Shown in pieces: positions 6,170 through 54,953 of a stretch of 64,000 bases of DNA. The DNA is taken from NCBI GenBank assembly GCA_000091205.1, contig AP006501.2; one strand, given 5' to 3'. The position numbers and the translations under genes were made by a program. The stretch's first letter is position 1. Every line of letters starts with the position of its first letter. This DNA comes from Cyanidioschyzon merolae. Its lineage: Eukaryota. The notes under the pieces are model-generated. The model did no database searches. It saw nothing but the letters and a program-made list of their open reading frames with translations, and had not been told where the DNA came from.

Positions 6170-8340
6170 ACAAAAAGCACACACCGCCGGCAACAAACGC
6201 TTTTCAAAAGAAAGACGCTGCCGCCAGCGGTGTACAGTAGTCGCGACCGGCGCCCTAGAGGAAACGTCTCCAATTGACGTGCAGACGCCTTCCAGCTTTT
6301 TTCCACTGGCCACCCACTACGGCTTCCAACTTTATCTCATATAATTCCACATTCAGAGATTGTTCAATAAAGAGTTCTCTTGTCAACTCTGGGGGTCTCT
6401 TCTCCATCAACGCATATTTCCTTATATTGATGGCAGCATTAAAGTCTCGATTCATAAACTCCATCAGTTTCTTGCCGTTGGGAGTTGTACTCACTAATGC
6501 AAGTAGTCCACGAACTTTCGCGCTCCTTTCCATTTGCTCTTCCGTCAGCGTACCGTACTTTCTTATAACCTCAGGACTCCTCTGGCACTTTTCCATCTCG
6601 ACCCTCTGAAGTGTACACCCCAGTTCATGGTGTGTATAGGACGTTCGAAACTCATCTACAGGTATCGTGCCGATACGCCGTGCACACTCTTTGTACGTTC
6701 TTGTCGTTGGAGCTGGCGAAGTTCCTTGCTTGGGTCTTCCGTCGCCCTGCTCCGTACGCTACTACGAGCCTCTGACTTTCATCCTCCTTCAAGGCGCTCA
6801 GCTGATTGAAAAAGTTCGCGAATGCACGCTGCTTCCCACAATACAAATTCATTCGCAGTCGAACCCGCCGGGGCTTGGTCTACTCCTCCTACAGCGCATC
6901 CCAATGAGCAACACGAACTTCCATGAATTTCCGTAGAGCCTGAAAGTCCGCTCCTCGGCTTGTCACCTCGCTCAAAGCTTCCAGGTGCTCTTTCATTCCT
7001 GCATTTCACTTCTCAATTTTCTTCCTCGCATTCATTATACCGGATTCTCGATAGAATCTCGCTCTCGAGAACCCCAAAAGACGCATGTCTTTCTGACGTA
7101 AGTTAGCATCAGTACCATCTTCCGCACGCTAGGGTACTGCGATGGTTATGTTATTTGTGTTTCCGGGATCCGCGCCAACGACAAAGTCGTTATCTTGCAC
7201 CTCCTGCGTCGCAGGATCCGCCTCCTTCTCATCTTCATGCATCGTCGCGCCAACGACAAGGTCGTTATCTTGCACCTCCTGCGTCCCAGGATCCGCCTTC
7301 TGCTCATCTGCATCCTTCGTCACGGGCGCAGCCGAGGGAGGGACTGGGCGATCTGTCTTCAACCGCCGATAGTGTATACACAAGGCTACTCCATCGGTTT
7401 CGATCATCTCAGTGAATACCTTTTGTTTGCTGACTTTGAGACGTTTGAAATCGAAGATACTCTTCCAGTACGTCTCACGGTTTTCACCGGAGAATTTCTT
7501 CCTGCTAACATCGGACTCAGGACTGATCTCGCTCATGATGCTGCAAAGACGCCAGAGTGGATAGTCACAAAATGTGACTTGATATTGTACATTGGAACAA
7601 CGTTGAAGCGCTTCCCCATTAGGAACGCCTTCCGTCTCTCCCACTCTTCATTTTTTCCTCATTCAGCCTCATCTCTGCCGTGCGTTCGAGTTCGCGGTCC
7701 AAAAACACGAAATACCTCAAGATGAGGAGGTAGTATCTTTCCTTATCTTTTCCAACTCTGATATCTTGTCTGCTGGATTAACCAGCCCCAAGACTGCACG
7801 GTGTTCCTGTATAACCGCACGGATTAGAGAAGCTTCATTCGTGCACTCATTCGACGCCTTCTTGTCAACGAACTCGATCTCATCTTCATGATGGCGATCG
7901 TTCGTGATGCAACTGATAATTGCCCATTTTCCTGCGCGAGACAGACCCAGGTAGAGTGCAACCACGGTGCGTATCATGAAACGTTCGAAGTTCGCTGTCA
8001 AATGGTTCTTCAGATTCGCGAGGTACTTCATCGCCCCATAGCTGTAAATATCCCAGTCACCCTTGTACCGAGTACCCTCGAACCCGTCAAAGGGATGTTT
8101 TTCGTGGAGAGCATGCACTAGCACATTTTCCCTCCGCGCTTTCTCTGTACCAAGCATCAGGTGACGAATAAAGGTCTTGTCGAAGAACTCGCCGGGAATC
8201 TCGACCGTTTCCATGTGCGTCCCGTCGCGATACATCTCTCTCACCAAATGCATCAGTCTTGACAACGCGTTGACAATACTCTTGGAGTACGACGCAAAAC
8301 GTTTTTCGATAGCGTCTCGCAACTTTTGTTTATGGGGATC
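6170..8340 (-). mobile_element. Diverged, 5'-truncated copy (copy 1) of a TnpB-like, Fanzor-type element
   Basis: Roughly 90-95% similar by eye to the elements at 45450-48005 and 52281-54800. Similarity ends near 8340, just upstream of the MRDAIEKR N-terminus, and near 6170, about 90 bp past the last coding piece. Confidence 0.7.
6255..8322 (-). pseudogene. Fanzor/TnpB-like nuclease remnant (copy 1), interrupted by in-frame stops
   Basis: The pieces are 7717..8322, 7129..7644 (contains ..[18 protein letters not shown], RuvC-I-like, followed by a private TAG), 6652..6852 (FANFFNQLSALKEDESQRLVVAYGAG..., TnpB-like pre-zinc-finger block) and 6255..6596 (...MEFMNRDFNAAINIRKYAL, RuvC-III-like). 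The copy has private stops and indels relative to copies 2 and 3. Confidence 0.65.
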
Positions 8341-8995
8341 CTTGATATATCCAAAAGGGTCCGCCAGGCTCGCGCTTCATGCTCCCGCCAGTACTTACTG
8401 CTGTAGCGATATCTAAGCGACTCGTCGAGAAACGCTGGTCATTCTGGGCTCGGGGCGGGTAGCCTGCGTCAGGGGCGTCGCCCTGGTCGCAGTGGACTCC
8501 TAGCGTATCGCTTCGCGCTGCTGCAGGCAGTAGGTCTAACTGCACATCTCCCAGGCTTCCAGAATGTTGACGAATCCCGATTCCGTATTCAATGAAGCAT
8601 TCCTCGATCCGATACCCCCATGGATATGGCAAAACCGTTCTGTCTCCATTCAGCATCCGCACTAGCAGCATCGGCTCTATTGCGGATGCAGCAATGCAGG
8701 TACTCAGCGCACGATGGAACATACGAAATTACCAGTATATCCGAGAACAGACCATGAAACTTGGCGTAAGAGCGAAGCATATTGAGCACTGGCATTGATT
8801 CCAATATCCACCCCACAATCTAGAATCCATGATCCATACAAACGTCTTCTCATCGAAGAAATGGCTTCAGCAGCCACAACGCTACCGACGACGACGTCAA
8901 TTACAATAACGCAATCTGGCATACATTATCTGGAGCTAGCGTTGTACCGGGAGTCTGCGTGCCTCGGTCGCTAGTCGACGTCCTTGCCCAAGGAT

Positions 8996-16117: not shown

Positions 16118-16316
16118 ACCACGGCACGACGATAGGATGTACGAAACGACCAGAATATCCGAGAAGAAGTGCAGGTAATGTAACTTGGAGGTAGCGGGTT
16201 TGATGGATACTTTGCCGCGTACTGAGAAAAAAACACACAAAAAAAGCAGGAAAAGAAAAATGCGCATAATCGGAGAACGCTGGACTAAGTAAACGTTTTG
16301 TCAATGAAAAAAAAAC
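16118..16316 (+). mobile_element. Solo 5'-truncated 3' tail of the same non-LTR retrotransposon family as 48560-52276, ending in an A-run
   Basis: 16118-16316 aligns with 52080-52276, with shared strings such as gtacgaaacgaccaga, ggtttgatggatac and gtaaacg..ttgtc.atgaaaaaaa. The overlapping antisense ORFs encode similar peptides (KYPSNPLPPSYITCTSSRIFWSF vs RYPSNSLPPSYSTYTSPRILWSF). It terminates in (A)9 at about 16306-16316. Confidence 0.55.
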
Positions 16317-19680: not shown

Positions 19681-20778
19681 GACTCCCTGAAATGGCTTCA
19701 GGCTCGAGAACCGGCCAAATGAGCAGTCGCACGTGCTATAGTTGCTCAGGTTCCAGGACACCTTCCAGAGGGCGTTCCGAACGACTACGCGCGTTCAAAA
19801 CACACCCGCGCTGACAACTGACGGACGCGAAACCCCGTGAAGCACCTACCTTCCTTGGCTCCGTTCTTTCGGTTTAGAAAGCGGGTTCTCGCAAAACTGC
19901 AGGGTGCTCCGCCAGAGTCCGGAGAAGATTCACCTAGTAACACAGCTGAAATGGTGCACGAAGAAACCTGCAGTACAGGCGTAAAGGCAGCCGCAACCGA
20001 TATGACGAACGATATCCACACCGTATCCTGGTGACACACTGCGACTTGTTGCGAGTTGCGGTCGATGTGGTGACCCCTGCACCATGAGCCAACTTGCCAC
20101 TGGAACTGAAACCGCCCGCAGGTAGAGCGGATCGTCGCTAGATGCTCTTGCTCGACGTCGATTAGGCGTGAAGACCTGGCGACTCTTCCCGATGGTCCAC
20201 GCCAACGGAGTCGTGAGCTGCACGAGTGCTGCTGAACAGGAGCGTTCAAATAGCGATGCCGCGCCCAGTATATGCCTTGCGTTGTCTTATCTTCGTGTCG
20301 GAGAACAGGCAGTTGTACAATCGGGAAATGCAGCGCGTTCAGGTAGAGCGTCTTGCTGCTCGCGCTATGTATCGACTTGGATGACCATGCGAAGCCGCCT
20401 CTGCATACACCATCATATCAACCTTAACCGGTACGCGCTTGTCTGCATGCCATGGAAAAGGCCCAGCTACCGAACTCGAGAATGGACCCTGGATTGTGTG
20501 TCTCTAACTGATGCATCCAACAGCAGCGTTCGCGGCTTTCTCTGCGACCGCTTCCTCTCTTTCTCGCTTACCGCTTGCGCTGAATACGGAGCTCCATCTT
20601 GTCCGTGCATCTTCGTTATAAGCAGTCGATGGATGTTGATCTTTGTGTTCAAGTCCTGATTTTGCTGCTTTCGGTAGTTGCCAATGCATTCCATGTGTGA
20701 ACGGAAGTTGCGATGTTCATCTTGTTTGTGCACAGCCTGGTTGCGCGCTTTGCAAATGTTCTATTTGGCCGTGGTCAG

Positions 20779-20888
20779 GTGTTCCTATATGTTCACCGTG
20801 TATGCGTATCCTCGGCGCGTCGTCTTGTGGAAGGTGTTCCTATATGCTCACCGTGTATGGATATCCTCGGCGCGTCGTCTTGTGGCGC
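20779..20888. repeat. 2 x 55-bp tandem duplication
   Basis: gtgttcctatatgttcaccgtgtatgcgtatcctcggcgcgtcgtcttgtgg is repeated head-to-tail with 3-4 mismatches. Confidence 0.6.
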
Positions 20889-22168
20889 GTCGACGCGTGT
20901 ATCATCGCTTGGTATACGCTCTTGACGAGTACGGAAAGCTGCCGTCGATGGTCTCTTATGCTTACGCTTCTGTGTGATTCCGTCGGCAGCGACTCTGCTC
21001 GTTGCACACACAAGCGCACGCTGTCCTAGTCGATTGGGAATTTGCGGAACGCGATGCTGTCCACAATGAGACAAGAACCGGAACGAATATCCAGGATGCA
21101 GGAGAGGCTGAGCACTGCCGATCCGTCTACGCTCCATTCTTGAAAAGCGTTGACACACGAATCACTGGAAGAGATCGCTGCGATGAATCAGACTCCAGTC
21201 GAAGATGCTTTCTCATTCAAACAGAAGGGATGGGTGCGTCTAGTCGCATATCCCTTGAGAGGGATTTGCTGCGGTGGAATGCGGTTTTTTGTTAACGGCC
21301 ATGAAAAGAATAAAAAATTCGTCGTTCCAACGGTATCGCTCATTTTTTGGTATGAGAAGTTTGGTGCGCATTTAGCATGAGCTTTTGCACTGGCCATCAA
21401 GCGACGACTTCGAGTTCCTGTCCCCGTCAATCCAGCAGCGCGAATTGCTGCGCCCACATGCTGCCTTGGTACAGAGAGAACCCAAGCTTAAAGAATGCGT
21501 AATCGAACACGCTTCAGGCATGGAAAGGAGAATACTTGACGCTCGTGCGAATGAGTGTGTTCATGATTCCGGTTCTGACACGATGCCGTGCTCGAGAACA
21601 TCGCGAATTATCTTGACTCCTAAATCGTATTCTATTCCAGCTGAGAAGCGTCAAAAGAGTCACTCCGAACAGACTTCAGAGCATCCGAAACCTACGTATG
21701 CGTTCGTTAACTACTATCCGTATTCCGCCAATGTCCAGATTGTGTATCAGAAAAGTTTTGGGAAACATCGCAAGGCAGGTACACAGCGCGTCCTCCAATG
21801 TTTTGTATTCAAGAGGTACGTGTAATCTGTCCATATATTCTAATATTGGGTATAAAGGAACAGACCCTGACATACAGTCTGGAGAATTTGTCCGTATTAG
21901 TTACAAAATATACATCTATGTATCATGACATAGAGCCTGCAACGAGGGCGCCCATTTCCCCATACATCAGCGGTGTCGTCGATGACTCGCCGCTTCGCCA
22001 GCCGCGGACGCCGAACTCATTCTGCCAGCCTATTCAAGAGGGAAAGAAAGCCCAGTGTACTTCGGTTGCTGGAGAACCCACACGTGGCGTCAGCGGTAAC
22101 GCCCAAAGGCCTCTTTCGGAAGCAAGGGCATCCGCAATAAAATTCGCTTGCGGAAGAATTTCTTGCGC

Positions 22169-25855: not shown

Positions 25856-26773
25856 GGCAGTAGACTTCGATGGCGGACTGGTTTTTGTATGCATATGTGA
25901 TACGGTATATGTAAAACTGGGTATCGAACTTGCAGCGCTGATAAACGTGGCAGTAGACTTCGATGGCGGACTGGTTTGTATGCATATGTGATACGGTATA
26001 TGTAAAACTGGGTATCGAACTTGCAGCGCTGATAAACGTGGCAGTAGACTTCGATGGCGGACTGGTTTGTATGCATATGTGATACGGTGTGTGTAAAACT
26101 GGGTATCGAACTTGGAGCGCTGATAAACGTGGCAGTAGACTTCGATGGCGGACTGGTTTGTATGCATATGTGATACGGTGTATGTGAAACTGGGTATCGA
26201 ACTTGGAGCGCTGATAAACGTGGCAGTAGACTTCGATGGCGGACTGGTTTGTATGCATATGTGATACGGTGTATGTGAAACTGGGTATCGAACTTGGAGC
26301 GCTGATAAACGTGGCAGTAGACTTCGATGGCGGACTGGTTTGTATGCATATGTGATACGGTGTATGTGAAACTGGGTATCGAACTTGGAGCGCTGATAAA
26401 CGTGGCAGTAGACTTCGATGGCGGACTGGTTTGTATGCATATGTGATACGGTGTGTGTAAAACTGGGTATCGAACTTGGAGCGCTGATAAACGTGGCAGT
26501 AGACTTCGATGGCGGACTGGTTTGTATGCATATGTGATACGGTGTGTGTAAAACTGGGTATCGAACTTGCAGCGCTGATAAACGTGGCAGTAGACTTCGA
26601 TGGCGGACTGGTTTGTATGCATATGTGATACGGTGTATGTAAAACTGGGTATCGAACTTGCAGCGCTGATAAACGTGGCAGTAGACTTCGATGGCGGACT
26701 GGTTTGTATGCATATGTGATACGGTGTATGTGAAACTGGGTATCGAACTTGGAGCGCTGGTAAACGTAGAGAG
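25856..26773. repeat. Minisatellite of about 10 tandem 91-92-bp units
   Basis: The unit ggcagtagacttcgatggcggactggtttgtatgcatatgtgatacggtgtatgtgaaactgggtatcgaacttggagcgctgataaacgtg repeats with a period of 91-92 bp. The only variants are gtatatgt/gtgtgtgt/gtgtatgtg and cttgcagcg/cttggagcg. It begins 70 bp after the Bms1 stop. Confidence 0.9.
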
Positions 26774-27379: not shown

Positions 27380-27609
27380 CATCCTAATGGCAAAAATACA
27401 GATATTCGACGGCATCTGATGAATCAATCGAACAAGCACGACCTAGGATGTCTACCCTGCACACCGATCACCGTCACTGAGCGATAGATGCTTACATCCT
27501 AATGGCAAAAATACAGATATTCGACGGCATCTGATGAATCAATCGAACAAGCACGACCTAGGATGTCTACCCTGCACACTGATCACCGTCACGGAGCGAT
27601 AGACGCTAT
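27380..27609. repeat. 2 x 115-bp tandem duplication upstream of msrA
   Basis: catcctaatggcaaaaatacagatattcgacggcatctgatgaatcaatcgaacaagcacgacctaggatgtctaccctgcacac.gatcaccgtcac.gagcgataga.gct.a is present twice, with 3-4 differences. Confidence 0.8.
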
Positions 27610-40547: not shown

Positions 40548-41876
40548 TCAGATAAACATGGAACATTGACCCATCCGCTATGTTCCTTTTCATATGATTT
40601 TTTCTGAGCGATCTTAGATGCACCATTGGCATTCGAGGTGCAGCAGTAGGTGCGTACGGATTCATACGTGGTTTCGGGGCTCCAGCTTGTCTATTCAGTG
40701 TGCCGCTATCGACTAGTTGGTGCTGGAATTTTTTAGTGCGCTGGAATCAAAACATTACGTGTTGCTATCGAATACGGGATCGCAACAGAATACATGTCAC
40801 TGACCAAATCGTATGTACAAGCGTCCGCTCTCCTCCTTTGCTACCGTTTCGTATGCTTCAGTCACACAATCTTCGTGTTTTCCATCTTTCCGTATCACAG
40901 AGGCTCGTGAGTGCGGCTACTCGTACCGCCAGATTGACGCGGATAATACCTCGACAACGCCCCGTAGCGGCCGCTTTGTAAGCGCATCCCCAACAGTCAC
41001 TGAACCTGTCACGTCAAATGATCCTGATCGATTGAACGGCAAATCCGTCTGCCTTCGTGGGCATCGACGGAACTGCATTCACGCTCAGCTTGATCCATCT
41101 CACCGGGCTATGCTGGCAGGGTCTCCCGTCTCTCCTGCTAGAATGTGAGAGCATCGTCGACTAGGGCTTGGGTTAGCGCAGCGATCGCTTCCGGGGCGGC
41201 GAGCGCCTCACCGCTTCTGACCGAGTCAGCGTCGACGCATCGAGAATGCTCGACATCGTGCACCGACCTGGACTTTGCTGCAGATACCTCTATTATCCTG
41301 GATACGATCGCGTTCCGCATACGCTCTATCGAACGGAGCAGCGTGCGCTTTCGAGTGCAGCGGACAGCGTACTTGCCAAGCGTCCGCTCAGGAGTGGAAA
41401 CAGCGGCGGGTTCCATGTCGAACCTCGTTTACTGCGAATAGCACGAACACGGGCAAAGCGTGTAGGCATCACGCGCGATAGGGCGACGCTCGGATGACGA
41501 GGGTGTTTGGCGAACACACGGGAACGACTACCGTTATCCAAGCGTCGCTGCTGCAGCGCACGAATCTATTCTGTATACGAGCAAGATGAGCGCGACGAGG
41601 GAAGCGAAGCTCGTAACGTCCGCCTGGACGTGACCTGCATTGAGCACAGCCAAAAGCAACGAGACCGACACATGAGCGCTGCACTCCATGTCCTTCGACG
41701 AAGGAGAACGCTGCTGGCGTGAGAGGAAACGGAGGCGTATGGAAACACGGAGAGAAGCGAAAGGACCGAGAGGCAGTCGCACCAGAAACCGTAAGGGCTG
41801 GTCTTGACGACGCCCGAGAACACACTTAAACTTTAGCTCGCATACCCGCATAAGAGGTGCATTTTCATACTACGCT
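40548..41876 (+). repeat. 1.33-kb dispersed repeat, copy A. It is the direct-repeat partner of 60131-61452.
   Basis: tcagataaacatggaacattgacccatccgctatgttcc ... cttaaactttagctcgcatacccgcataagaggtgcattttcatactacgct is shared with copy B, with only a handful of substitutions. Flanks diverge immediately outside. No convincing protein domain was found in any frame. Confidence 0.85.
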
Positions 41877-42593
41877 GACATGGATGTAGAGTGCACCCCG
41901 AATGGAACCATCTGAACGCGCTCCACCTTGTTCTAATTTGGGTGCAGCACACGGGCTCACCACCTGTTCGAGACAAACGTTGCGAATGATCTGCAAGTGC
42001 GGCGCCCTACCAGTGCCTCTACGCATGGAGATTTCCATAGATATTCGAGCAGTTCTTGTAGGGCGCTCTAGCGCCATTACATGGAAAACATTCTGTGCTG
42101 CACACTCGAATCGGTGCCCTGGTTGAAACCAGTCATTCAGGATGCTGGAGCAACAACCATCTCAGCGGACATGGACCGAGCATCCCCGGTTCTAAAAGAA
42201 GCAGTGTTGCAGATCGGTGATACGGCAGGCCTCTCTAGAGAGTACCCAGACAGGCATGTATGAATCTGGGGTATTTTCGAATGCTTTCAGGACGATCATG
42301 ATGATGCGTTGCTTGCTCGGAAGCATCTGCAGCGTACCTGTTTGTGTACCAGCGCACGCGGGTGTGCGCCCTGTGCACCTGCGCAGCGACGTACGTGATT
42401 GTCTACCCAGGCCTCCTTGTCTGTTGTATCGTCACCGACTACTAGACGAGTTGCTGCACATGCGCAGCAGGAGAGAGGTCTCGTCGATGTAACAAGCTGG
42501 TGTGTTGAGCCCTGGTGAGCTGTTCACTGCGTTCTGTCTGGTTTCGTCGGGACTCTTGAACGCCCGGTTCGTCGTTGCTGAGTTTAACCAGCG

Positions 42594-43535: not shown

Positions 43536-44042
43536 GTGCCAGCCCGGAGTAAGCGCCGCTGACCGTGACCCGACGCTGCACCACTGAGCGAGCGCATTCT
43601 CTTGTGCACATGCGAATGCGTCGCTATATCCGTATCGTATCGACCTGTATAATACTATCCATGACATTGCAGGCGCACCGCTGCAGCATTGGGCATCTGC
43701 TGACACCCGACTAGGCCAGGTGCGGTGTTGTCTTCAAGTGAATCTGGGTTACCACGGCGGATAAACATGCGAACCTCGACGACATTCCGGATCTGACTTG
43801 TTCCCCTCGCCCGCTCTGTCTACGGATGACGTCAACTCGACCAATGTGCAGCGCTTCTCCGCTCACAACCAGCGATGCTTCAGGCAAAGTCCTTCACCGT
43901 TATGCTCGATGCTGTGCGCATGCGGTTATTGGAAAAGGCGACCCCGATGCTGATACTCTGTTTCGTACATATCTCAGTGCATTGCGCTCTGGTCTGAATC
44001 AACGTCACTGGATATGTTCGTCGGCTTTGCCCAGAGAAACTG

Positions 44043-45326: not shown

Positions 45327-45449
45327 GAGTCCAGTGAAGATCGAGACGTTCGCTAGAGCACCGAAAACAAGCGAGGAACCTGAAGCGTCCGGGTGGCTTT
45401 GTATGCACGGATGCTCGAAGCCTAGCTAGCGCACAACTTGGCTGAGGAT

Positions 45450-48005
45450 GCGCACCCCTGGAAACAAACGTCTTTCAAAAGAAAAACGTTGCTGCCAGTG
45501 GTACAGTAGTGGCGGCAACCGCACCCTAGCCAAGAAGTCTCCAACTGATGTGCAGACGCCTTCCAGCTTTTTTCGACTGGCCACCCACTACTGCTTCCAA
45601 CTTTTTCCCATATAATTCCACATTCAGAGATGGTTCCATAAAGTTTTCTCTTGTCAGCTCTGGGGGTCTATTCTCCATCAACGCATATTTCCTTATATTG
45701 CTGGCAGCATTAAAGTCTCGGTTCATAAACTCCATACGTTTCGTGCCGTTGGGAGTTGTACTCACTAATGCAAGTAGTCCACGAACTTTCGCGCTCCTTT
45801 CCATTTGCTCTTCCGTCAGCGTACCGTACTTTCTTATAACCTCAGGACTCCGCTGGCACTTTTCCATCTCGACCCTCTGAAGTGTACACCCTAGCTCATG
45901 GTGTGTATAGGACGTTCGAAACTCATCTACAGGTATCGTGACGATACTCCGTGCACACTCTTTGTACGTTCTTGTCGTTGGAGCTGGCGTAGTTCCTTGC
46001 TTGGGTCTTCCGTCACCCTGCTCCGTACGCTACTACGAGTCTCTGACTTTCATCCTCCTTCAAGGCGCTCAGCAGATTGAAAAAGTTCGCGAATGCACGC
46101 TGCTTCCCACAATACAAATTCATTCGCAGTCGAACCCACCGGGGCTTGGTCTACTCTTTCCACAGCGCATACCAGTGAGCAATACGAAGTTCCATGAATT
46201 TCCGAAGAGCCTGAATGTCCGCTCGTCGGCTCGTCACCTCGCTCATAGCTTCCAGATGCTCTTTCATTCTTTCATTCCATGCAGCAATTTTCTTCCTCGC
46301 ATTCATTATACCGGATTCTCGATAGTATCTCGCTCTCGAGAACCTCAAAAGACGCATGTATTTCTGACGTAAGTTACCATCAGTACCATCTTCCGCACGC
46401 TGGGGTACTGCGATGGTTATGTTATTTGTGTTTCCGGGATCCGCGCTGACGACAAAGTCGTTATCTTGCACCTCCTGCGTCGCAGGATCCGCCTCCTTCT
46501 CATCTTCATGCATCGTCGCGCCTGCATCCTTCGTCTCGGGCGCAGCCGAGGGAGGGACTGGACGATCTGTCTTCAACCGCCGATAGTGTATACACAAGGC
46601 TACTCCATCGGTTTCGATCATCTCAGTGAATACCTTTTGTTTGCTGACTTTGAGACGTTTGAAATCGAAGATATTCTTCCAGTATGTCTGCCGGTTTTCA
46701 CCGGAGAATTCCTTCCTGCTAACATCGAAATCAGGACTGATCTCGCTCGTGATGCTGCAAAGACGCCAGAGTCGATAGTCACAAAATGTGACTTGATATT
46801 GTACATTGGAACCACGTTGAAGCGCTTCCCCATTAGGAACGCCTTCCGTCTCTCCCACTCTTCATTTTTTCCTCATTCAGCCTCATCTCTGCCGTGCGTT
46901 CGAGTTCGCGGTCCAAAAACACGAAATACCTCAAGATGAGGAGGTAGTATCTTTCCTTATCTTTTCCAACTCTGATATCTTGTCTGCTGGATTAACCAGC
47001 CCCAGTACCGCACGGTGCTCTTGTATAACCGCACGGATTACAGAAGCTTCATTCGTGCACTAATTCGACGCCTTCTTGTCAACGAACTCGATCTCATCTT
47101 CATGATGGCGATCGTTCGTGATGCAATTGATAATCGCCCATTTTCCTTCGCGAGACAGACCCGGGTGGAGTGCAACCACGGCGCGTATCATGAAACGTTC
47201 GAAGTTCGCTGTCAAATGGTTCTTCAGATTCGTGAGGTACTTCATGGCCCCGTAGCTGTAAATATCCCAGTCACCCTTGTACCGAGTACCCTCGAAGCTG
47301 TAGAAGGAATGTTTTTCGTGGAGGGCATGCACTAGCACATTTTCCCTCCGCGCTTTCTCTGTACCAAGCATCAGGTGAGGAATAAAGGTCTTGTCGAAGA
47401 ACTCGCCCGGAATCTCGACCTTTTCCATGTGCGTCCCGTCGCGATACATCTCTCTCACCAAATGCATCAGTCCTGACGACGCCTTGACAATATTCTTCGA
47501 GTACGACGCAACACGTTTTTCGATAGCTTCTCGCAACTTTTCCCTGTACGGATCCTTGATCTGTCCAAGAAGAAAGGTTTTCACCACCATCTCGTCGCAC
47601 AGTTGTCTTTCTTGCCGCTTTCGACGTAGGGCCTCCCCCGTTTTTGCGTTTTCTTCTTATCCTGCTCTTCTGGAATCGGCACTGTTTTTTGTTTTTTTTC
47701 TGGCACCCGGCGACACTGGGCCTCCAGGATCGTAGACTTGCTTTTTCATAGCTTTCCTTTTTTAGTTTTTTTTGAGAAAGAACGCTCTTTGAACTCTTCT
47801 GTTATATACTGCGAAAAAAACACTTGATTAGACTTGTTCGAAGTTTGAAACACAATTGAAATGAAAAACTGTACTTGGCTATGAAGTTAACGAAAATACA
47901 ACTTTTACATTAGATCTACATGCTAGAGATCAGGATCACGTTCCCCTTCAACAACGGCATGTGCGTAGCGTCTCATGCCTGCCTGATCTCCGAGGTGCAC
48001 TCACC
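45450..48005 (-). mobile_element. TnpB-like (Fanzor-type) element copy 2. It forms the left arm of a 2.5-kb inverted repeat.
   Basis: It is the reverse complement of 52281-54800 at near identity. Coding remnants are 47060..47590 (the N-terminal piece, ending KKASN then TAG), 46151..46858 (the middle piece with [15 protein letters not shown]) and 45526..45867 (C-terminal MEFMNRDFNAASNIRKYAL...). A Lys/Arg-rich putative NLS segment lies further 5'. Confidence 0.75.
45526..47590 (-). pseudogene. Fanzor/TnpB-like nuclease remnant (copy 2). It has in-frame stops and lacks one 20-aa internal repeat present in copies 1 and 3.
   Basis: The middle piece reads ...[51 protein letters not shown]..., which has a single [11 protein letters not shown] unit compared with two in copy 3. 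Confidence 0.65.
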
Positions 48006-48559
48006 GAGCGCGATGCAAACTAGTCACAAATTATTTATTAAAGAACAACTATCTTAAAAGCCCCATACAGCACGCGCGCCTATGGGGTCTAGTTTTTCCG
48101 AAGAAGCTCTGAAAGTGGGTTAAACCGGGGTGCTTGGGCGACGACGAAGGAAGCCCACGCCAGGGACCATGACCGCAACGAACGGAGGGGCGGAGGCAGT
48201 GGCAGCAGAAAATATTGACGAGAGTTCTGAGTAGTTATCCGCTGCTCCCGAAACAACGCTGCAGGTTCCGGCGCAAATCCTGGATCCATCCTCGAACTCG
48301 GGCTACGTTTTACCTCCCACCTTGAGCACCTACCTCAACTTTGGAAACACTCTCGGCGGATACTTCGGAAGGCGGCTATCGATATGCTCGTGGTCGAAGC
48401 TGGAATAAGCGACTTACCCGCCTATGTGTTTGGGGAACGGATACGTAACCGCTGAACGGGTGCTTTGCAGACTGTTCCCAATGGTTGAGGGTAGCTTCAC
48501 GCGTCCGGCAAGATAAAGTTCGCATTCGAATCGACCTTGACTAATGTACTTCTGATTCT

Positions 48560-51500
48560 ACGCTAGCGCTGCGGCAGACACTCAATGAACGACTGGAATG
48601 CAGGAGGCGCTGGTGGCATGTGCTCTCACACACCTTGTGGAGGGTGCATCTAAATGGACGACGCATCTCTCGAGTACCGCAGCGTTACTCCTATACCCTT
48701 ATGCGCTACGACTCGATAGGTTTCGCATCATGGAATATTTGCGGTGTGGCCTCGATACTAGACGACGAGATATCGAATTACCAGTACAGTAATGAAGAAC
48801 TGATACAAGTCGAGGACTGTACAATAGGAAAAGAGACCCAACCAGACACGGAGAAGGAGACACAGAAACCTCATGATCCACCTAGATGCAAAATAACCAG
48901 AGAAAGTAGCTCAGGAAAGAGCCCGAAGAAGAAAAAGACCAGCAAGAAATAAACAGAAGAATAGAAAAAAGAACTCCCAAATGAGCCCATCACAAGGTAT
49001 CCCCCGAGAGGGCACCCCAGCTGGAACTCAAGAAAGCCGTCGCCAAACCCAGGCACCTACTCACAGCGCTGAAGATCCGAAAAGCCGTGCATACAAATTT
49101 TTTGACCAATTGACACGCGAGTTTGTAGATGGGAATCAGAAGATTGCCAGAGAGCTGGGACTGCTTGCACCAGAACGCAACAGTTGCAAACCTCGGTACC
49201 TGAAACGACGTACCAAAACTCGGATTGATGAATGCTACCGAGTCTATAAGATCGTCAACCGCACCGCCATACACGCCAACGCCGGAGACAAAGAAGCGAA
49301 GGCAGCGCTACCGGCGCTACAGGCGCAACATGAAGAAGCTATCAAAAGAAAGAAGAAACTTTCCAGAGAAGACAAACGAGAGGATCGAAACCGCAGAATC
49401 GCCTCCCTGGCGAAATCTATGCTGGAGAGCACCAACGAAGATGAGATCTGGCGCTACATTCGATCGAGACTCGACCCACCAAAAAAGTGCTTGGGGCTCA
49501 CACCAACTCTGTATAAGGAAGAGCTGAGGACGGAGCGTGCCTCAGTGAATGAGGCCTGGACAGACCACTGGACAGAGCTGCATGAAGAAGCAACTGGACA
49601 CTGCTAAGACCCAATCTATTGGCACCAATATGCTGCAGAACTACCGCGCCTCGACCCGGTACCGGAATGGAACGACCCAATCTTCTGGCCTGAATCTGTC
49701 CGGACTCTGCTATGCTCAAGCAACCGCAAAACACCTGGCTTTGACGGTATCCCTACGGAGTGGATGAAACTGGTGATCCCAAAAGACGGGACAACAGGGA
49801 CACCATCGATACCAGATGAACCTGACAGAATCTTAGGCAAGCGCCTTCTGGAGCTCATCCAACGCATGTTCGAAGAAGCGTACATCCCAGATGTATGGAG
49901 GACTGCCGAGGTCGTATCGATCCTCAAAAAGGACTCCGAACCCCACAGACATGAATATCTACCGGACTATGCGCCTCATCCCGTCAATCATGAAGCTACT
50001 TTGCGCCAACCTCACGAACCGGACTCAGAGGGGCCTTGAGGAACGCAACTTCCTCGCCCCAGAGCAGGCTGGATTCCGGAGCCGCGAGGAGTGCATGAGC
50101 CATGACCTGACCTTCATTGAAGTGGTGCAACGTCGCTCCATTAGCTGCCAACAACCAACTTACGTATGCTTCATCGACTTTCAAAAGGCCTTTGACACGG
50201 TCCCGCACGAGGCTCCATTTCTGAAGATGGAACGTGCCAGAGTCTCCGGAAAGTGCTTAGCGTTCTTCCGTGCGCTCTATGCAGACTCGTGGATGTGCAC
50301 CCGACTGGGCGACTGCTCAAGAACCCCTTCGATAAGAATCCGCCGTGGACTGCGACAGGGCGACCGCGCATCCCCGCGCCTTTTCAACATCTTCATCAAC
50401 GATCTGCTGAACAACTGCAGACAATACGGGCTTCAGGTGTCGTGGATAGACTGTGGAGAACCCGGTGAGGAGCGCCTACATAGAAACCGCCTCGCAGGCC
50501 TTCTACTTGCGGACGATGTCGTGCTGTTGGCACCCGCCCCGGAAACGCTTGCGGCTAGCATGCAACAAGTCAGCGCCTGGGCCGATCGCTGGGTTATGAA
50601 CATAGGAGCATCGAAGTGCGGCGCCATGGTCATCCTTGGAGACTCGCAGCGCATTCGCAATCGCTCGTGGCGGTTGCAGAATCAGGAAATTCCGATCGTG
50701 GAAAAATATCGCTACCTGGGGGTCTGTCTCACGCCGACGCTCGACGAAAAGGCACAAGTCGACGAGATGATCGCCAAGATGCATAGACGTACAGAGATCG
50801 CACGTCCATTCTTATCCGACCCCTCTATCTGCATAGCAATCCGTACGAGGGCACTAAGGATGTGTATCATCCAGCCTTCGACCTGGGGTGCTGAATGGTG
50901 CGGCATGAAGCACACAAATGCCTCGCGTCTGCATACAGCCGCCAACAGGGCAATGCGACTCGTTGGTGTTGGATGCTCAGTGCAGCGCAGAGCGACCAAC
51001 CCGCTGGCACTCGGACTTGAACTCCAAATAGCCTCGATAGAAGCGATAGCAGCAGGCTGCCGGGCATGTATACGGGCCAAAGGGCCCACTATGCGCACCT
51101 CCTTGAGTCGGATTTTCATGCAGACCCCAACGCACCGCTAGAACACTTGGATGAAATCAGCGCAGATTTGGCTGAAGCGCCTCTTACGCGAAAACACGCT
51201 ACCCAATCGTTCCCCAGGAATGTAGAAGACTTCAGACGCCTCAAGCGAACGGTCCAAACAACAATATGGGAAGGTAGACACGGTACCAGTCGCGCTAGTA
51301 ACGCCGGCTTGACTCTATATCGGAACTACAACCTAGCATACACATGCAAGTACTGGTGGGAGGCGCTGGAATTCCCGGGACTTGCTCGCGGTACCCTGTG
51401 GCTTGCCAAAATCCGTGTTAGTGGCATCTGGCTACCAGCACCGGCTCTAAGCCGTACGGGAACACTGGAACCGCACTGGGAGTCACACTGTCCCTGCTAT

Positions 51501-52276
51501 CGAGACGAAATCCCCGAGACGCTGACATATTTAAGCTTACAGTGCCCGCGCTCGAAGCAGGAGCGCAGCGAGCTCCTTGAAGGACAGCAGGAGCTCGGCA
51601 TCACCGTGATAGTCGAAGGCCGGACACTCACTCTGAGTGTAGCACTGGCAACTGATGGTCCGCTAACGGAGCCTCAGCGCTCATGAGTGGCGAAGAAACT
51701 CACATGCTACCTTCTAGGCAGCAGGTCCAACGAATCGGATGAGCACACGGGTTTAGTGCTCTTTGTGCCTACCCACTGTGGTGGGTGTCAAGCACAAACC
51801 CGCATTGCCAACCGACAACACATTCAATGCATGATCACGAAGGAAAGAGGCGGCTCGCACGATATATCCTAACAGCCAAGTTTCTCCAGCGTGTCGTGCA
51901 GCGAAGACAAGCCTGCATCCGCAGACTGTCCGAGCACAAACTGACGACGAGACCCGATTCTACTTCGGTTGAACCACGCCTCGAGCCGACGCGCTCTGGG
52001 GTATAGAAAAGCTGCTCTAGCTCGATGAACTATCTGCTCCAGCATTTAAGGTCCAAAGGCGGATACGGAAAGGCAGGTACTAGGCACACACGATAGGACG
52101 TATGAAACGACCAGAGTATCCGAGGTGAAGTATAGGTACTGTAGCTTGGAGGCAGGCTGTTTGATGGATACCTAACCGCGCACTGAAAAAAATAACATAA
52201 AAAAGTAAGAAAAGAAAAAGCGCACAATTGGAAAATGCTGGCACAAGTAAACGTCTTGTCCATGAAAAAAAGAATC
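48560..52276 (+). mobile_element. Degenerate non-LTR (LINE) retrotransposon with APE-like, RT and CCHC remnants and a 3' A-rich end
   Basis: 48620..48952 carries IGFASWNICGVAS, an AP-endonuclease-like start. 49764..50039 and 49891..51141 carry RT blocks (VWRTAEVVSILKK..., YRTMRLIPSIMKLL, CFIDFQKAFDTVPHE, GLRQGDRASPRLFNIFIND, LLADDVVLLA). 51066..51686 has a CCHC-like knuckle (CPCYRDEIPETLTYLSLQCP). Frameshifts separate the pieces. The 3' end (...catgaaaaaaag) abuts arm B at 52281. The 5' boundary is approximate. Confidence 0.75.
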
Positions 52277-52280
52277 GCGC

Positions 52281-54800
52281 TCGGTGAGTGCACCTCGGAG
52301 ATCAGGCAGGCATGAGACAAGACGCGCGTGCCGTTTTTGAAGGGAAACGCGATCCTGATCAGTAGCGTGTTGTTCTGCTGTAAAAGTCGGATTCCCGTTC
52401 AGATCATAGCAAAGTATAGTTTTCATTTCAATTGTGTTTCAAACTTCGAACAAGTCTAATCAAGTGTTTTTTTCGCAGTATATAACAGAAGAGTTCAAAG
52501 AGCGTTCTTTCTCAAAAAAACTAAAAAAGGAAAGCTATGAAAAAGCAAGTCTACGATCCTGGAGGCCCAGTGTCGCCGACTGCCAGAAAAAAAACAAAAA
52601 ACAGTGCCGATTCCAGAAGAGCAGGATAAGAAGAAAACGCAAAAACGGGGGAGGCCCTACGTCGAAAGCGGCAAGAAAGACAACTGTGCGACGAGATGGT
52701 GGTGAAAACCTTTCTTCTTGGACAGATCAAGGATCCGTACAGGGAAAAGTTGCGAGAAGCTATCGAAAAACGTGTTGCGTCGTACTCGAAGAATATTGTC
52801 AAGGCGTCGTCAGGACTGATGCATTTGGTGAGAGAGATGTATCGCGACGGGACGCACATGGAAAAGGTCGAGATTCCGGGCGAGTTCTTCGACAAGACCT
52901 TTATTCCTCACCTGATGCTTGGTACAGAGAAAGCGCGGAGGGAAAATGTGCTAGTGCATGCCCTCCACGAAAAACATTCCTTCTACAGCTTCGAGGGTAC
53001 TCGGTACAAGGGTGACTGGGATATTTACAGCTATGGGGCGATGAAGTACCTCGCGAACCTGAAGAACCATTTGACAGCGAACTTCGAACGTTTCATGATA
53101 CGCACCGTGGTTGCACTCTACCCGGGTCTGTCTCGCGAAGGAAAATGGGCGATTATCAATTGCATCACGAACGATCGCCATCATGAAGATGAGATCGAGT
53201 TCGTTGACAAGAAGGCGTCGAATTAGTGCACGAATGAAGCTTCTGTAATCCGTGCGGTTATACAAGAGCACCGTGCGGTACTGGGGCTGGTTAATCCAGC
53301 AGACAAGATATCAGAGTTGGAAAAGATAAGGAAAGATACTACCTCCTCATCTTGAGGTATTTCGTGTTTTTGGACCGCGAACTCGAACGCACGGCAGAGA
53401 TGAGGCTGAATGAGGAAAAAATGAAGAGTGGGAGAGACGGAAGGCGTTCCTAATGGGGAAGCGCTTCAACGTGGTTCCAATGTACAATATCAAGTCACAT
53501 TTTGTGACTATCGACTCTGGCGTCTTTGCAGCATCACGAGCGAGATCAGTCCTGATTTCGATGTTAGCAGGAAGGAATTCTCCGGTGAAAACCGGCAGAC
53601 ATACTGGAAGAATATCTTCGATTTCAAACGTCTCAAAGTCAGCAAACAAAAGGTATTCACTGAGATGATCGAAACCGATGGAGTAGCCTTGTGTATACAC
53701 TATCGGCGGTTGAAGACAGATCGTCCAGTCCCTCCCTCGGCTGCGCCCGAGACGAAGGATGCAGATGAGCAGAAGGCGGATCCTGAGACGCAGGAGGTGC
53801 AAGATAACGACCTTGTCGTTGGCGCGACGATGCATGAAGATGAGAAGGAGGCGGATCCTGCGACGCAGGAGGTGCAAGATAACGACTTTGTCGTCAGCGC
53901 GGATCCCGGAAACACAAATAACATAACCATCGCAGTACCCCAGCGTGCGGAAGATGGTACTGATGGTAACTTACGTCAGAAATACATGCGTCTTTTGAGG
54001 TTCTCGAGAGCGAGATACTATCGAGAATCCGGTATAATGAATGCGAGGAAGAAAATTGCTGCATGGAATGAAAGAATGAAAGAGCATCTGGAAGCTATGA
54101 GCGAGGTGACGAGCCGACGAGCGGACATTCAGGCTCTTCGGAAATTCATGGAACTTCGTATTGCTCACTGGTATGCGCTGTGGAAAGAGTAGACCAAGCC
54201 CCGGTGGGTTCGACTGCGAATGAATTTGTATTGTGGGAAGCAGCGTGCATTCGCGAACTTTTTCAATCTGCTGAGCGCCTTGAAGGAGGATGAAAGTCAG
54301 AGACTCGTAGTAGCGTACGGAGCAGGGTGACGGAAGACCCAAGCAAGGAACTACGCCAGCTCCAACGACAAGAACGTACAAAGAGTGTGCACGGAGTATC
54401 GTCACGATACCTGTAGATGAGTTTCGAACGTCCTATACACACCATGAGCTAGGGTGTACACTTCAGAGGGTCGAGATGGAAAAGTGCCAGCGGAGTCCTG
54501 AGGTTATAAGAAAGTACGGTACGCTGACGGAAGAGCAAATGGAAAGGAGCGCGAAAGTTCGTGGACTACTTGCATTAGTGAGTACAACTCCCAACGGCAC
54601 GAAACGTATGGAGTTTATGAACCGAGATTTTAATGCCCCTATCAATATAAGGAAATGAGCGGTGCTGGAGGAAAGACCCCCAGAGTAGACAATAGAAAAC
54701 CTTTTTGGACAACCTCTCAAAGTCGAACTATATGAGATAAAGTTGGAACCAGTATTAGGTGGCCGATCCAAAAAGGCTGGAAGGCGTCTGCACATCAGCT
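52281..54800 (+). mobile_element. TnpB-like (Fanzor-type) element copy 3. It forms the right arm of the inverted repeat.
   Basis: Coding remnants: 52434..52690 is a K/R-rich NLS-like stretch in another frame. 52696..53226 is the N-terminal piece. 53428..54192 is the middle piece (...[27 protein letters not shown]...RIAHWYALWKE). A continuation lies in the same frame after a TAG (TKPRWVRLRMNLYCGKQRAFANFFNLLSALKEDESQRLVVAYGAG). 54476..54658 reads MEKCQRSPEVIRKYGTLTEEQMERSAKVRGLLALVSTTPNGTKRMEFMNRDFNAPINIRK. A conserved 3' noncoding tail of about 140 bp follows. Confidence 0.75.
52560..54658 (+). pseudogene. Fanzor/TnpB-like RuvC nuclease remnant (copy 3)
   Basis: The domain order matches TnpB/Fanzor. 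There is an N-terminal region, a RuvC-I-like hydrophobic-D-P-G motif, then a F..F..L..K.E....VV block, then a Cys-containing region, then the RuvC-III-like NRDFNA.INI. In-frame stops occur after KKASN, after TTSSS (four stops within 25 codons), after ALWKE and after YGAG. Confidence 0.65.
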
Positions 54801-54953
54801 GGAGGCGTTTCGTCTAGGGCGCGTTCGCCGGCACGACTGTACACGGCCGCCGGCTGTGCGTCACGTGGAGCCGCGAGCGGCGGGCTTCTACCAAGTGCCG
54901 CTTGTACCAAACGCACTTGCACCTCGTGTGGACACAGACGCATACCTGAGTGC

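Follow-up and report, generated by a model that had tools for sequence, protein, structure and literature searches.

The Fanzor-like element on the minus strand at positions 6182 to 8354 of the window (the whole stretch of 64,000 nucleotides that was analysed) is a dead copy of the already described Fanzor1 family CMe-1A, and its state is that of ordinary transposon decay. The joint explanation, to which we assign a probability of roughly 0.8, is that this copy is a defunct CMe-1A member, that the stop-rich segment in its reading frame was produced by deletions and is not an intron, and that the bodies of the copies in the window were homogenised by gene conversion. The copy itself is of little weight, being a decayed member of a transposon family that has been catalogued since 2013, in a model alga with a complete genome sequence. 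The analysis removes a false lead, there being neither an intron nor a hidden intact gene. It also attributes the stops common to the copies to conversion between linked old copies and not to a recent burst, which matters for the dating of transposon activity by copy identity.

Three copies are present in the window, and when an intact relative was used as a tblastn query, no others were found there:
6182..8354, minus strand: c1, core of a CMe-1A-type Fanzor1, pseudogene (self-BLAST, alignment and tblastn)
45453..48014, minus strand: c2, complete core (BLAST and alignment)
52274..54854, plus strand: c3, core whose terminal 3' hairpin is gone (BLAST and alignment)

BLAST comparisons among the three copies gave E=0, and the identity of c1 is 94.0% to c2 and 92.9% to c3 with gaps excluded. 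The first-pass annotation had placed c1 about 5–10% away from the two other copies, which form the arms of an inverted pair, and had judged all three to be related at the nucleotide level beyond short motifs; both statements were upheld. The first 441–446 nt of the core common to c2 and c3 are missing from c1, and the tblastn alignment of an intact relative (P0001) to c1 needed two frames and ran through stops. A histone deacetylase ORF in the window is identical to BAM82711.1 of Cyanidioschyzon merolae 10D, and the window belongs to 10D or to a strain nearly identical to it. Exact-protein look-ups with three c1 ORF fragments and a neighbouring phosphatidate cytidylyltransferase-like ORF did not find the c1 locus on record in other strains.

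CMe-1A was described as a family of about 150 copies of about 3 kb, approximately 80% identical to their consensus, without terminal inverted repeats (TIRs), with undetermined target-site duplications (TSDs), and with 635 bp at the 5' end in common with TE-N2_CMe (Bao & Jurka 2013, Mobile DNA 4:12, PMC3627910). The assignment of the window element to this family was made by host and published description. The element occurs in the same host species, encodes the same kind of protein, and is old, multi-copy and mostly degenerate. Its full length of about 3 kb is made up of a 567-nt 5' module and a 2.58-kb core. Neither c1 nor c2 has TIRs, and the search for TSDs revealed no common flank words of at least 8 nt at seven elements and none for units composed of the core and the upstream module found in c1 (the U module). 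Among 41 related non-identical copies, 15 have the 567-nt module ahead of the core; the 41 were taken from contigs of metagenomes, and some of them are alleles of one locus from different strains. The module is absent from the window. Unlike the published family, c1, c2 and c3 have no such TE-N2_CMe-like 5' module, its place at the junction being taken by LINE-derived DNA, which makes them 5'-variant or rearranged CMe-1A members. Lesions, conversion tracts, LINE junctions and 3' hairpins do not appear in the CMe-1A description (PMC3627910). In hot-spring metagenome contigs, 324 relatives were found, most of them 12–21% apart.

The Fanzor-like identity proposed by the first-pass annotation was borne out by protein comparisons. 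In Pfam, the ORF fragments had a single match, below the threshold (Cas12f1-like_TNB), and the full-length relatives had none except PF07282 in one distant relative; because Pfam was almost silent, homology was shown by a profile comparison with PDB sequences and by comparison of folds. With a profile of 17 full-length relatives, the E-value was 1.3e-9 for SpuFz1 (8GKH) and 1.1e-4 for GtFz1 (9CER), and the D, E and D motifs were aligned in these matches. An AF2 model with a pLDDT of 75, made for the intact relative P0001 and not for the broken window copies, matched SpuFz in a Foldseek search with E=2.8e-15 (TM 0.55/0.67), followed by PpFz and GtFz, the three lying in the E range from 3e-15 to 2e-11; matches to TnpB, Fanzor2 and Cas12f were weak (E>=0.01). 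With its WED, REC and RuvC parts, the modelled fold is nearer to that of Fanzor1 than to those of TnpB, Fanzor2 or Cas12. The codons of the catalytic motifs and a repeat were located in c1 as follows:
7153..7173, minus strand: RuvC-I motif ADPGNTN, aligned to SpuFz1 vvvIDPN
6639..6659, minus strand: RuvC-II motif VDEFRTS, aligned to SpuFz1
6435..6452, minus strand: RuvC-III motif NRDFNA(AINI), aligned to SpuFz1
7171..7321, minus strand: in-frame tandem repeat of two 75-nt (25-aa) units, found by Tandem Repeats Finder and alignment

All three motifs are present in c1, c2 and c3, the third one reading NRDFNAPINI in c3. Intact members encode a Fanzor1-type RNA-guided RuvC endonuclease. Profile and fold similarity to SpuFz1 (8GKH, 9CEU-9CEZ), GtFz1 and PpFz1 extends over WED, REC and RuvC, but the identity to SpuFz1 is only about 14%, and the family has a disordered 25-aa tandem repeat ahead of RuvC-I, the copy number of which differs across the family. 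The CxxC...CxxC zinc finger after the RuvC-II glutamate is missing in the family, where at most one or two Cys/His residues are left: SpuFz1 DEYKTSSVCPRCSS...GLLGCTNPNC aligns with DEFRTSYTHHELGC...GLLALVSTT, three of the four aligned zinc-finger cysteines being absent. This loss is clade-level variation. SpuFz1 also differs in residing in an element with TIRs and TA TSDs; the window family has neither, and the window copies are pseudogenes.

The lesions of the three copies are the following:
7550..7753, minus strand: out-of-frame stretch of c1 between three 1-nt deletions common to all copies (near 7753, 7654 and 7550), with a frame walk 1→3→2→1
6880..6882, minus strand (c2 46153-46151; c3 54190-54192): nonsense change TAT (Tyr)→TAG common to all copies, from the alignment
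about 6729..6730, minus strand (c2 about 46000; c3 about 54343): +1 insertion after YGAGRxKTQ common to all copies, position approximate
53224..53226, plus strand, in c3 (47062-47060 in c2): TAG after KKASN in c2 and c3 only, the c1 codon being GAG
54328..54330, plus strand, in c3 (46015-46013 in c2): CGA→TGA after YGAG in c2 and c3 only, the c1 codon being CGA
7129..7131, minus strand: c1-private TAG after AVP, where c2 and c3 have CAG; present also in strain allele L002 of the c2 locus
7006..7008, minus strand: c1-private TGA (Trp), inside a 17-nt haplotype that the c2 locus also carries in strain allele L003
6889..6891, minus strand: c1-private TAG (Trp)
54656..54688, plus strand: two c3-private stops, TGA 54656-54658 and TAG 54686-54688, in the unconverted 3' end of c3

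Five disabling lesions are thus common to c1, c2 and c3, namely the three 1-nt deletions, which fall within 204 nt, the Tyr→TAG change and the +1 insertion. In total, c1 has four frameshifts and four premature stops; c2 and c3 have more, including two frameshifts in their N-terminal part. The stops listed by the first-pass annotation after TTSSS (in all three copies), KKASN, AVP and YGAG are every one at the place given. The Tyr→TAG change, the +1 insertion, the extra private stops of c1 and c3, the N-terminal frameshifts of c2 and c3 and the readability of the stop-rich segment in other frames had been missed by it. The longest ATG-initiated ORF is 176–178 aa, against 722–746 aa in the two best relatives, and none of the three copies contains an ORF able to yield a full-length nuclease. 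No nuclease is made by c1, and at most its 3' hairpin region is kept intact.

Each of the common 1-nt deletions is visible against the intact copies L005 and L023. Two of them are in A-runs, where the alignment is ambiguous and recurrence is possible, and the same gap occurs in a few unrelated copies. The stop-rich segment at 7645-7716, for which the first-pass annotation had offered an intron as an alternative, lies inside the out-of-frame stretch and encodes conserved protein in the other two frames. With the three deletions restored, its translation is collinear with close relatives at 74–78% identity, the same value as for the frame-corrected window copies as a whole, and its residues are kept also in relatives of only 35–40% identity. 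The suggestion that the gene is intact, with the 72–78 nt segment and perhaps other stops being spliced out, could draw on a GT just past the TGA (GGTATTT) at the start of the segment and on several AG dinucleotides inside it. However, the residues of the segment are uninterrupted both in the intact relatives and in the 35–40% identical ones, more in-frame stops and the +1 shift are found within conserved motifs such as YGAG|R and EY|TKPRW, and the neighbouring long genes of the window are uninterrupted ORFs. Introns are, moreover, very few in C. merolae genes. The intron alternative therefore fails, and its probability is next to nil.

Rescue of the ORF at the level of expression, by three successive -1 ribosomal frameshifts or by transcriptional slippage in A-runs, would leave the copies functional. 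It could appeal to the sum of the three deletions (-3), which brings the original frame back after 204 nt, to the A-runs at two of the sites (GGAAAAG and GGAAAAAAT) and to the divergence between c1 and c2/c3, which is lowest over this 200-nt stretch (2 mismatches per 200 nt). However, a conversion patch accounts equally well for the low divergence, the third site (GCGT-CTTTGC) is not slippery, and the zero frame has no canonical X XXY YYZ heptamer. Downstream, c1 has four more stops and the +1 insertion, c2 and c3 carry at least three stops together with the two N-terminal frameshifts, and the substitutions are neutral with respect to codon position. Programmed or transcriptional frameshifting was rejected on account of these further stops and of the third site, which is not slippery, and we regard functional copies of this kind as extremely improbable.

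The relationship between c2 and c3 is defined by a single tract:
52420..54627, plus strand: gene-conversion tract in c3, corresponding to c2 47867→45716

Within it, the copies differ by eight substitutions and by two indels, one in an A-run and one of 57 nt (0.4% divergence). Outside it, 24 substitutions were counted over the 101 nt that precede it and 44 over the 214 nt that follow, so that the ends are about 21–24% diverged (tract vs. ends, Fisher p=1e-54). The ends of c3 are 15–16% from c1 and c2, as far as from unrelated members. The combination of a near-identical internal tract with diverged ends indicates that c2 and c3 are old inverted copies homogenised by gene conversion. The description of them as young in the first-pass annotation does not hold, their near-identity being confined to the internal 2.2 kb. 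The divergence between c1 and c2 is over-dispersed along the element (p=3e-4), and the c2-locus alleles found in other strains combine c1-type with c2-type haplotypes in a mosaic fashion. The strain allele L004 of that locus is 20–28% different in the middle and c2-like at the 3' end. Differences between c1 and c2 are distributed over the codon positions as 40/31/41 (p=0.44), vs. an excess at the third position in distant family pairs (p~1e-5). This even spread indicates neutral decay since the split of c1 from c2/c3, and the data support the view that the sequence was already dead in the last common ancestor of the c1 and c2/c3 bodies.

The three copies are old insertions, each structured separately, whose bodies were homogenised by conversion between linked copies, as is shown for c2 and c3. 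The body of c1 was probably homogenised in the same way; plain copying of a dead element is the less probable origin of its similarity, though one to be taken seriously. The common lesions would have been in one donor sequence and would have spread with it as a consequence of conversion, the private ones arising later under neutral decay. A different history was proposed by the first-pass annotation, in which transposition in trans multiplied an already defective master, c1 arising first and the arm copies recently, with independent decay thereafter. The five disabling lesions in all three copies with further ones nested, the neutral-looking substitutions since the c1/c2 split, the extension of c1–c2 homology over the whole common core including the right-end hairpin, as copying of a whole element would give, and the occurrence of the structure of U module, deletion and core at more than one locus, so that defective units did spread, are in line with it. 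Yet c2 and c3 are strongly diverged on both sides of the near-identical tract, the ends of c3 are no nearer to c1 and c2 than to unrelated members, the 5' junction is different in each of the three copies, the junction of c1 is also found in paralogs with cores about 18% diverged and no special affinity, and the c2-locus alleles of other strains are mosaic for the two haplotypes. Amplification from a defective master is thus unlikely: the common and private lesions and the dead ancestor stand, and the recent arm copies give way to conversion and differing 5' junctions. A dispersed subfamily with the same five lesions may exist elsewhere in the 10D genome; the comparison covered the window and the metagenome copies.

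Conversion between the old copies of the window resembles the concerted evolution of palindrome arms and duplicated transposons in its near-identical tract with diverged flanks, in the arrangement of the inverted copies 4.3 kb apart and in strain alleles that are mosaic for paralog haplotypes. Here, however, the converted sequence is a pseudogene, so that conversion spreads lesions and does not preserve function.

The 5' junctions of the copies involve two stretches of LINE DNA:
8355..8862, minus strand: U module of c1, antisense 3' fragment of a diverged LINE, with 66–75% matches upstream of the Fanzor core at many loci
48015..52271, plus strand: degenerate non-LTR retrotransposon between the inverted c2 and c3, with an RVT_1 domain and an A7 tail

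The outer end of the U module, a fixed boundary near 8862, is the reverse complement of a LINE A-tail (ATTTCTTCGATGAGAAGACG...), and the module is joined to the c1 core by a deletion of about 640 nt. The same deletion junction is found in L020, L021, L031 and L081, and the paralog cores are about 18% diverged. A special kinship of the c1 core with L020/L081 was considered and rejected (59 vs. 61 informative sites, c1 vs. c2 core). The first-pass annotation had called c1 5'-truncated, which is correct in so far as the first 441 nt or so of the core are missing; the cause is an internal deletion that keeps the upstream module, with a junction common to paralogs. In c2, the core begins right next to the 5' end of a LINE that is full-length and in antisense; in c3, it begins next to the A-tail of a sense-oriented LINE.

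On the left, the Fanzor core has a fixed boundary (c3 52274, ATCGCGCTCGGTGAGCGCAC), the sequence of which includes a small palindrome. In 24 of the 41 family copies this boundary is joined to LINE-derived DNA, which is found in either orientation and ends at differing points (full length, 1.27 kb or about 0.7 kb), the Fanzor end being constant. A LINE bridges an inverted pair of Fanzor copies in the window (c2-LINE-c3) and at L009 and L055. The first 45–68 nt of the core were considered as a possible part of the LINE 3' end; since solo LINEs end at the A7 tail, this was rejected. Speculatively, and with a low probability in our estimation, the left end may be recurrently nicked or broken by transposition chemistry or the Fanzor nuclease, the break priming endonuclease-independent LINE reverse transcription, or template switching or twin priming may allow the LINE reverse transcriptase to co-mobilise Fanzor transcripts. 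If true, this would be the first mechanistic link of a Fanzor1 element of unknown class to a retrotransposon, and the recurrent junction is the only feature perhaps worth further work. Signs of a retrocopy or a SINE-like element were not found, there being no A-rich tail past the Fanzor 3' end and no TSDs. Random 5' truncation was dismissed as a sign of retrocopying, the apparent truncations being internal deletions that retain the upstream module.

In Chlamydomonas, the Fanzor1 genes of CRe-1/2/3 are carried by Helitron2-type transposons (Bao & Jurka 2013, PMC3627910). The window family is similar to them in its nearly always intact 3' ends with a terminal hairpin, in the lack of TIRs and in variable 5' ends that are truncated or chimeric, with internal deletions; it differs in that its variable 5' partners are LINE fragments. 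Features of Helitron or Helitron2 were sought at both ends: there is a 3' hairpin, but it is not followed by CTRR, and neither a common target motif nor a TTTT target was detected. No Rep/helicase ORF adjoins c1, c2 or c3. In IS200/IS605 elements with TnpB, the 3' end of a RuvC nuclease gene serves, together with right-end hairpins, as a guide-RNA scaffold; this is the ancestral architecture, which the window family may have kept. Like the window family, these elements lack TIRs and TSDs and have small palindromes near both ends; in contrast to them, the window family has no TnpA (Y1) gene, a eukaryotic host and a much larger protein, and it shows no sign of the excision and homing cycle.

The 3' end of the copies is structured, and in c1 it is located as follows:
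6186..6258, minus strand: small hairpin over the stop codon, conserved ACTACTGTACAC and long terminal hairpin

The conserved two-hairpin end stops where the conservation between copies stops. Its minimum free energy in c1 is -40.4 kcal/mol (z -3.69); in c3, which has lost the terminal hairpin, z is +0.27. Rfam gave no match in the window at the gathering threshold, and RNAalifold on a plain MAFFT alignment of the 3' ends produced a meaningless consensus (-4.5 kcal/mol). Hairpin length is not the same in all subfamilies, and the structure was therefore captured with a covariance model seeded by hand. This model matches the structure at all three copies, with 74.8% of cells paired vs. 34–56% when the partner is slid and with compensatory changes in 18 of 28 pairs; the observed values were reached by none of 500 shuffles. 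Judging from the sequence, this 3' end is a candidate for the end of an ωRNA scaffold or for a right-end hairpin, and its extension to the element boundary resembles that expected of the ωRNA gene of characterised Fanzor1 elements. By analogy with characterised Fanzor1 and TnpB, intact members would use an ωRNA derived from the structured 3' end. The lesion map and the positions of the conserved 3' hairpins would be of help in the choice of an intact C. merolae-type Fanzor1 and its predicted ωRNA.

Self-comparison of the window revealed three copies of a single element, 2.2–2.6 kb in length.

Copies of the element
8354→6182, minus strand: c1, called copy 1 in the first-pass annotation
48014→45453, minus strand: c2, first arm copy
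52274→54854, plus strand: c3, second arm copy

With gaps excluded, c1 shares 94.0% identity with c2 and 92.9% with c3, which confirms the relatedness at the nucleotide level that had been noticed by eye; the first 441–446 nt common to c2 and c3 are absent from c1. With an intact relative as the query, tblastn found no fourth copy in the window. The G+C content of the window is 55%, and its host ORFs are long and uninterrupted, including a histone deacetylase ORF (44043–45326, minus strand) identical to C. merolae 10D BAM82711.1.

The search with a frame-corrected translation of the copies found 63 relatives, all from hot-spring metagenomes, including the near-intact protein P0001 (752 aa) and several proteins that are full-length yet only 28–40% identical. 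A profile of 17 full-length relatives matched SpuFz1 of Spizellomyces punctatus (8GKH, E=1.3e-9) and the Fanzor1 of Guillardia theta (E=1e-4), with all three RuvC motifs aligned. The AlphaFold2 model of P0001 (pLDDT 75) matched the Fanzor1 structures SpuFz, PpFz and GtFz with E=3e-15 to 2e-11, and TnpB, Fanzor2 and Cas12f much more weakly. The profile and fold matches bear out the description of the copies as Fanzor-like. The CMe-1A family of C. merolae was previously reported by Bao & Jurka in 2013 as ~150 copies of ~3 kb, ~80% identical to the consensus, with no terminal inverted repeats (TIRs), undetermined target-site duplications (TSDs) and a few intact ORFs (PMC3627910). The element is a member of this family, known since 2013, and its behaviour is ordinary for decaying repeats.

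An in-frame tandem repeat of 75 nt (25 aa, acidic) lies directly before the catalytic motif RuvC-I (7171–7321 and 53751–53901); c2 lacks 57 nt of it at ~46523, the number of units ranges from ~1 to 5 among family members, and the repeat is predicted to be disordered in the P0001 model (residues 374–471, pLDDT below 50). Throughout the clade, DEFRTSYTHHELGC...GLLALVSTT stands after the RuvC-II glutamate in place of the canonical CxxC...CxxC zinc finger (family alignments A1 and A2; c1 6560–6640); the residues of SpuFz1 aligned with it include four cysteines.

A codon check found a stop after TTSSS in all three copies. At three further sites, c2 and c3 agree and c1 differs: KKASN is followed by TAG (c1: GAG), AVP by CAG (c1: TAG) and YGAG by TGA (c1: CGA), all as first read. 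The proposal that the stop-rich segment of 75 nt is an intron was refuted. Three-frame reading showed that the c3 protein continues after TTSSS in frame 3, then in frame 2 and then back in frame 1, and the residues of this stretch are unbroken in the relatives P0001, P0002 and P0004 and in others only 35–40% identical. The segment codes for conserved residues in shifted frames, and its stops are explained by three separate 1-nt deletions relative to a family consensus of 56 non-identical copies.

Lesions of the three copies
c1 ~7753; c2 ~46967; c3 ~53319: first 1-nt deletion versus the family consensus
c1 ~7654; c2 ~46868; c3 ~53418: second 1-nt deletion versus the consensus
c1 ~7550; c2 ~46764; c3 ~53522: third 1-nt deletion versus the consensus
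c1 6882; c2 46153; c3 54190: Tyr to TAG, common to all three
c1 ~6729; c2 ~46000; c3 ~54343: +1 insertion after YGAGRxKTQ, common to all three
c2 and c3 only: KKASN-TAG and YGAG-TGA
c2 and c3: two N-terminal frameshifts, in a region absent from c1
c1 only: TAG 7131, TGA 7008, TAG 6891
c3 only: TGA 54656, TAG 54686

The three deletions total −3 and two of them are located in A-runs. Rescue by programmed or transcriptional frameshifting was rejected, because the third site is not slippery and the remaining stops would persist. The stretch 7554–7754 of c1 (c3 53324–53474), which contains the three deletions, is the least diverged between c1 and c2/c3 (0–2 mismatches per 100 nt versus 3–15 elsewhere). 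The probable explanation is a conversion patch of later date, and no evidence of constraint on the stretch was found.

The differences between c1 and c2 fall on codon positions 1/2/3 as 40/31/41 (p=0.44), and distant pairs in the family show a clear third-position excess (e.g., 105/87/153, p~1e-5). These counts indicate that the family was formerly under selection at the protein level and that the window copies are not. Only 2 of ~60 non-identical copies retain an ORF longer than 700 aa, and c1, c2 and c3, with ORFs of 176–178 aa, are among the most fragmented. The lesion map and the flat codon-position counts agree with the earlier suggestion of shared and private lesions followed by decay.

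The near-identity of c2 and c3, which had been called young, is limited to an internal tract with diverged ends.

Segments of c3 compared with c2
52274–52318: identical; conserved throughout the family
52319–52419 (101 nt): 24 substitutions
52420–54627 (2.2 kb): 8 substitutions, one A-run indel and one in-frame 57-nt repeat indel
54628–54841 (214 nt): 44 substitutions
past 54841: terminal hairpin lost in c3

The contrast in mismatches between tract and flanks is strong (Fisher p=1e-54). Both end segments of c3 differ by 15–16% from c1 and c2, a distance equal to that from unrelated family members, while in the body the three copies form a tight group at ≤6%, versus 12–17% to all other copies. 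The relation of c2 to c1 is the same at the c2 ends as in its body, and the simplest reading is that c3 was overwritten by a c2-type body. Two inverted copies 4.3 kb apart, near-identical inside and with old flanks, bear the signature of gene conversion and not of recent duplication.

The description of c1 as 5′-truncated holds in that the first 441–446 nt of the core (the Fanzor part of the element) are gone, but the upstream module is retained. Positions 8355–8862 represent a module of ~500 nt that many other copies also have upstream of their core, likewise oriented (66–75% identity); its outer end is fixed and reads as the reverse complement of the 3′ end and A-tail of a LINE (non-LTR retrotransposon), ATTTCTTCGATGAGAAGACG versus TTTTTTTCATGGACAAGACG. 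Complete copies of this type have, in between, ~200 nt of additional module and the 441 nt at the start of the core, so c1 carries a deletion of ~640 nt spanning the junction. The same junction is found at another locus, represented by the metagenome loci L020/L021/L031/L081, whose cores are ~18% from c1; the c1 core has no special affinity to them (59 versus 61 informative sites against c2). The c1 junction is old, whereas the c1 body is 5–6% from c2. The 5′ structure of c2 is unlike that of c1, and the divergence of the two copies is unevenly spread over the element (dispersion p=3e-4). In other strains, the orthologous alleles at the c2 locus (L002, L003, L004), with flanks 97–99% identical, are mosaics: L002 carries the AVP-TAG of c1, L003 has the 17-nt TGA haplotype of c1, and CGA in place of TGA, and L004 has a c2-like 3′ end and a body 20–28% different. 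The old junction, differing 5′ structure, patchy divergence, mosaic alleles and lack of affinity to the L020 group argue, with a probability of roughly 0.65, for an exchange of sequence among linked copies rather than copying of the whole element; a copying of an already dead element is a possible source of the c1/c2 likeness. The three copies would then be old, structurally distinct insertions, the bodies of which were later homogenised through gene conversion, and this history replaces that of one old copy and two young arms amplified from a master.

L001–L004 are orthologous to 42043–47269, and the c2 locus is polymorphic among strains; in L001, homology to c2 starts only at 46023, and L002 and L003 combine c1-type and c2-type haplotypes.

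The anatomy of the family was studied using 80 related loci taken from metagenome contigs. In most copies, the core begins at the position corresponding to c3 52274 and ends 75–85 nt past the stop codon. The 3′ end comprises a small hairpin across the stop codon (UAGGGCGnG...CGCC.CUA), the conserved ACTACTGTACAC and a long terminal hairpin, the stem of which varies by subfamily with pairing kept (CACCGyTGGCG-CGTTCGA-CTT-TCGAACG-CGTTnnTGGTG in one, ...AACGTTTTTC-TTTT-GAAAGACGTT... in another); beyond it, the sequences are unrelated from copy to copy. A hand-seeded covariance model gave 55 matches, within the window only at c1 (6186–6258, minus strand), c2 (45457–45529, minus strand) and, partially, c3. 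The model alignment has 74.8% of its cells paired, versus 34–56% with partners slid; 18/28 pairs show compensatory change, and no shuffle reached the observed pairing values; these figures lean towards structure, since the alignment was fitted to the model. Folding-energy z-scores are −3.7 for c1, −4.0 for c2 and +0.3 for c3. The two-hairpin end, which shows compensatory base changes between subfamilies (family alignments A3 and A5), is retained by the dead copies c1 and c2, and c3 has lost it. The hairpins lie where a Fanzor or TnpB system would have its ωRNA scaffold and right end and, by analogy, are likely to be the end of an ωRNA scaffold or a right-end hairpin. The 3′ end matched no Rfam family. 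Neither TIRs nor TSDs were detected, which fits the 2013 description.

A degenerate 4.26-kb LINE (48015–52271, plus strand; RVT_1 domain E=3e-22, broken frames, A7 tail) occupies precisely the interval that separates c2 and c3, inverted copies whose 5′ ends face it, and a solo 185-nt LINE 3′ fragment, 82% identical and with the same A-tail end, is located at 16129–16313. Of 41 non-identical copies whose core start is intact, 15 possess a conserved 567-nt 5′ module, giving a total of ~3.1 kb, consistent with the CMe-1A / TE-N2_CMe description. Antisense LINE DNA adjoins the core in 16/41 (full-length 5′ ends, or 3′ fragments with the A-tail pointing outward), a sense A-tail in 8/41 and unique flanks in 2/41; the left boundary therefore adjoins LINE-derived DNA in either orientation in 24/41.

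LINE junctions at the left end of the core
52274 (c3) and 48014 (c2) in the window
L005, L006, L009, L011, L018, L019, L024, L026–L028, L035, L036
further loci: L040, L043, L049, L051, L055, L061, L069, L074, L075, L086

At these junctions the Fanzor end is always the same, and it is the LINE end that varies. A LINE enclosed by two inverted Fanzor copies is seen repeatedly (c2-LINE-c3, L009, L055/L077). That the core start is part of the LINE was rejected, as solo LINE 3′ ends stop at the A7 tail, which places it outside the LINE. Recurrent breaks at the left end of the element priming LINE reverse transcription are one candidate explanation, and template switching or twin priming on a Fanzor transcript is another; both are weakened by the lack of TSDs and of an A-tail, none being found at the Fanzor 3′ end. 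Composite units spreading as such are a third candidate. A 2026 review reported no evidence for retrotransposon-encoded Fanzor (PMC13565253), and the junction data do not contradict it. The recurrent junction is the sole lead here that deserves specialist attention.

A direct repeat of 1,329 bp (40548–41876 and 60124–61452, 99.2% identical, 18 kb apart), without a long ORF, flanks the histone deacetylase gene, c2, the LINE, c3 and an eIF4G-like gene, and has a weak third match at 20992–21234. The window also contains ten 91-nt units arrayed in tandem, matching at 98% (25856–26767), near which are two-unit repeats of 115 nt (27380–27607) and 55 nt (20777–20885).
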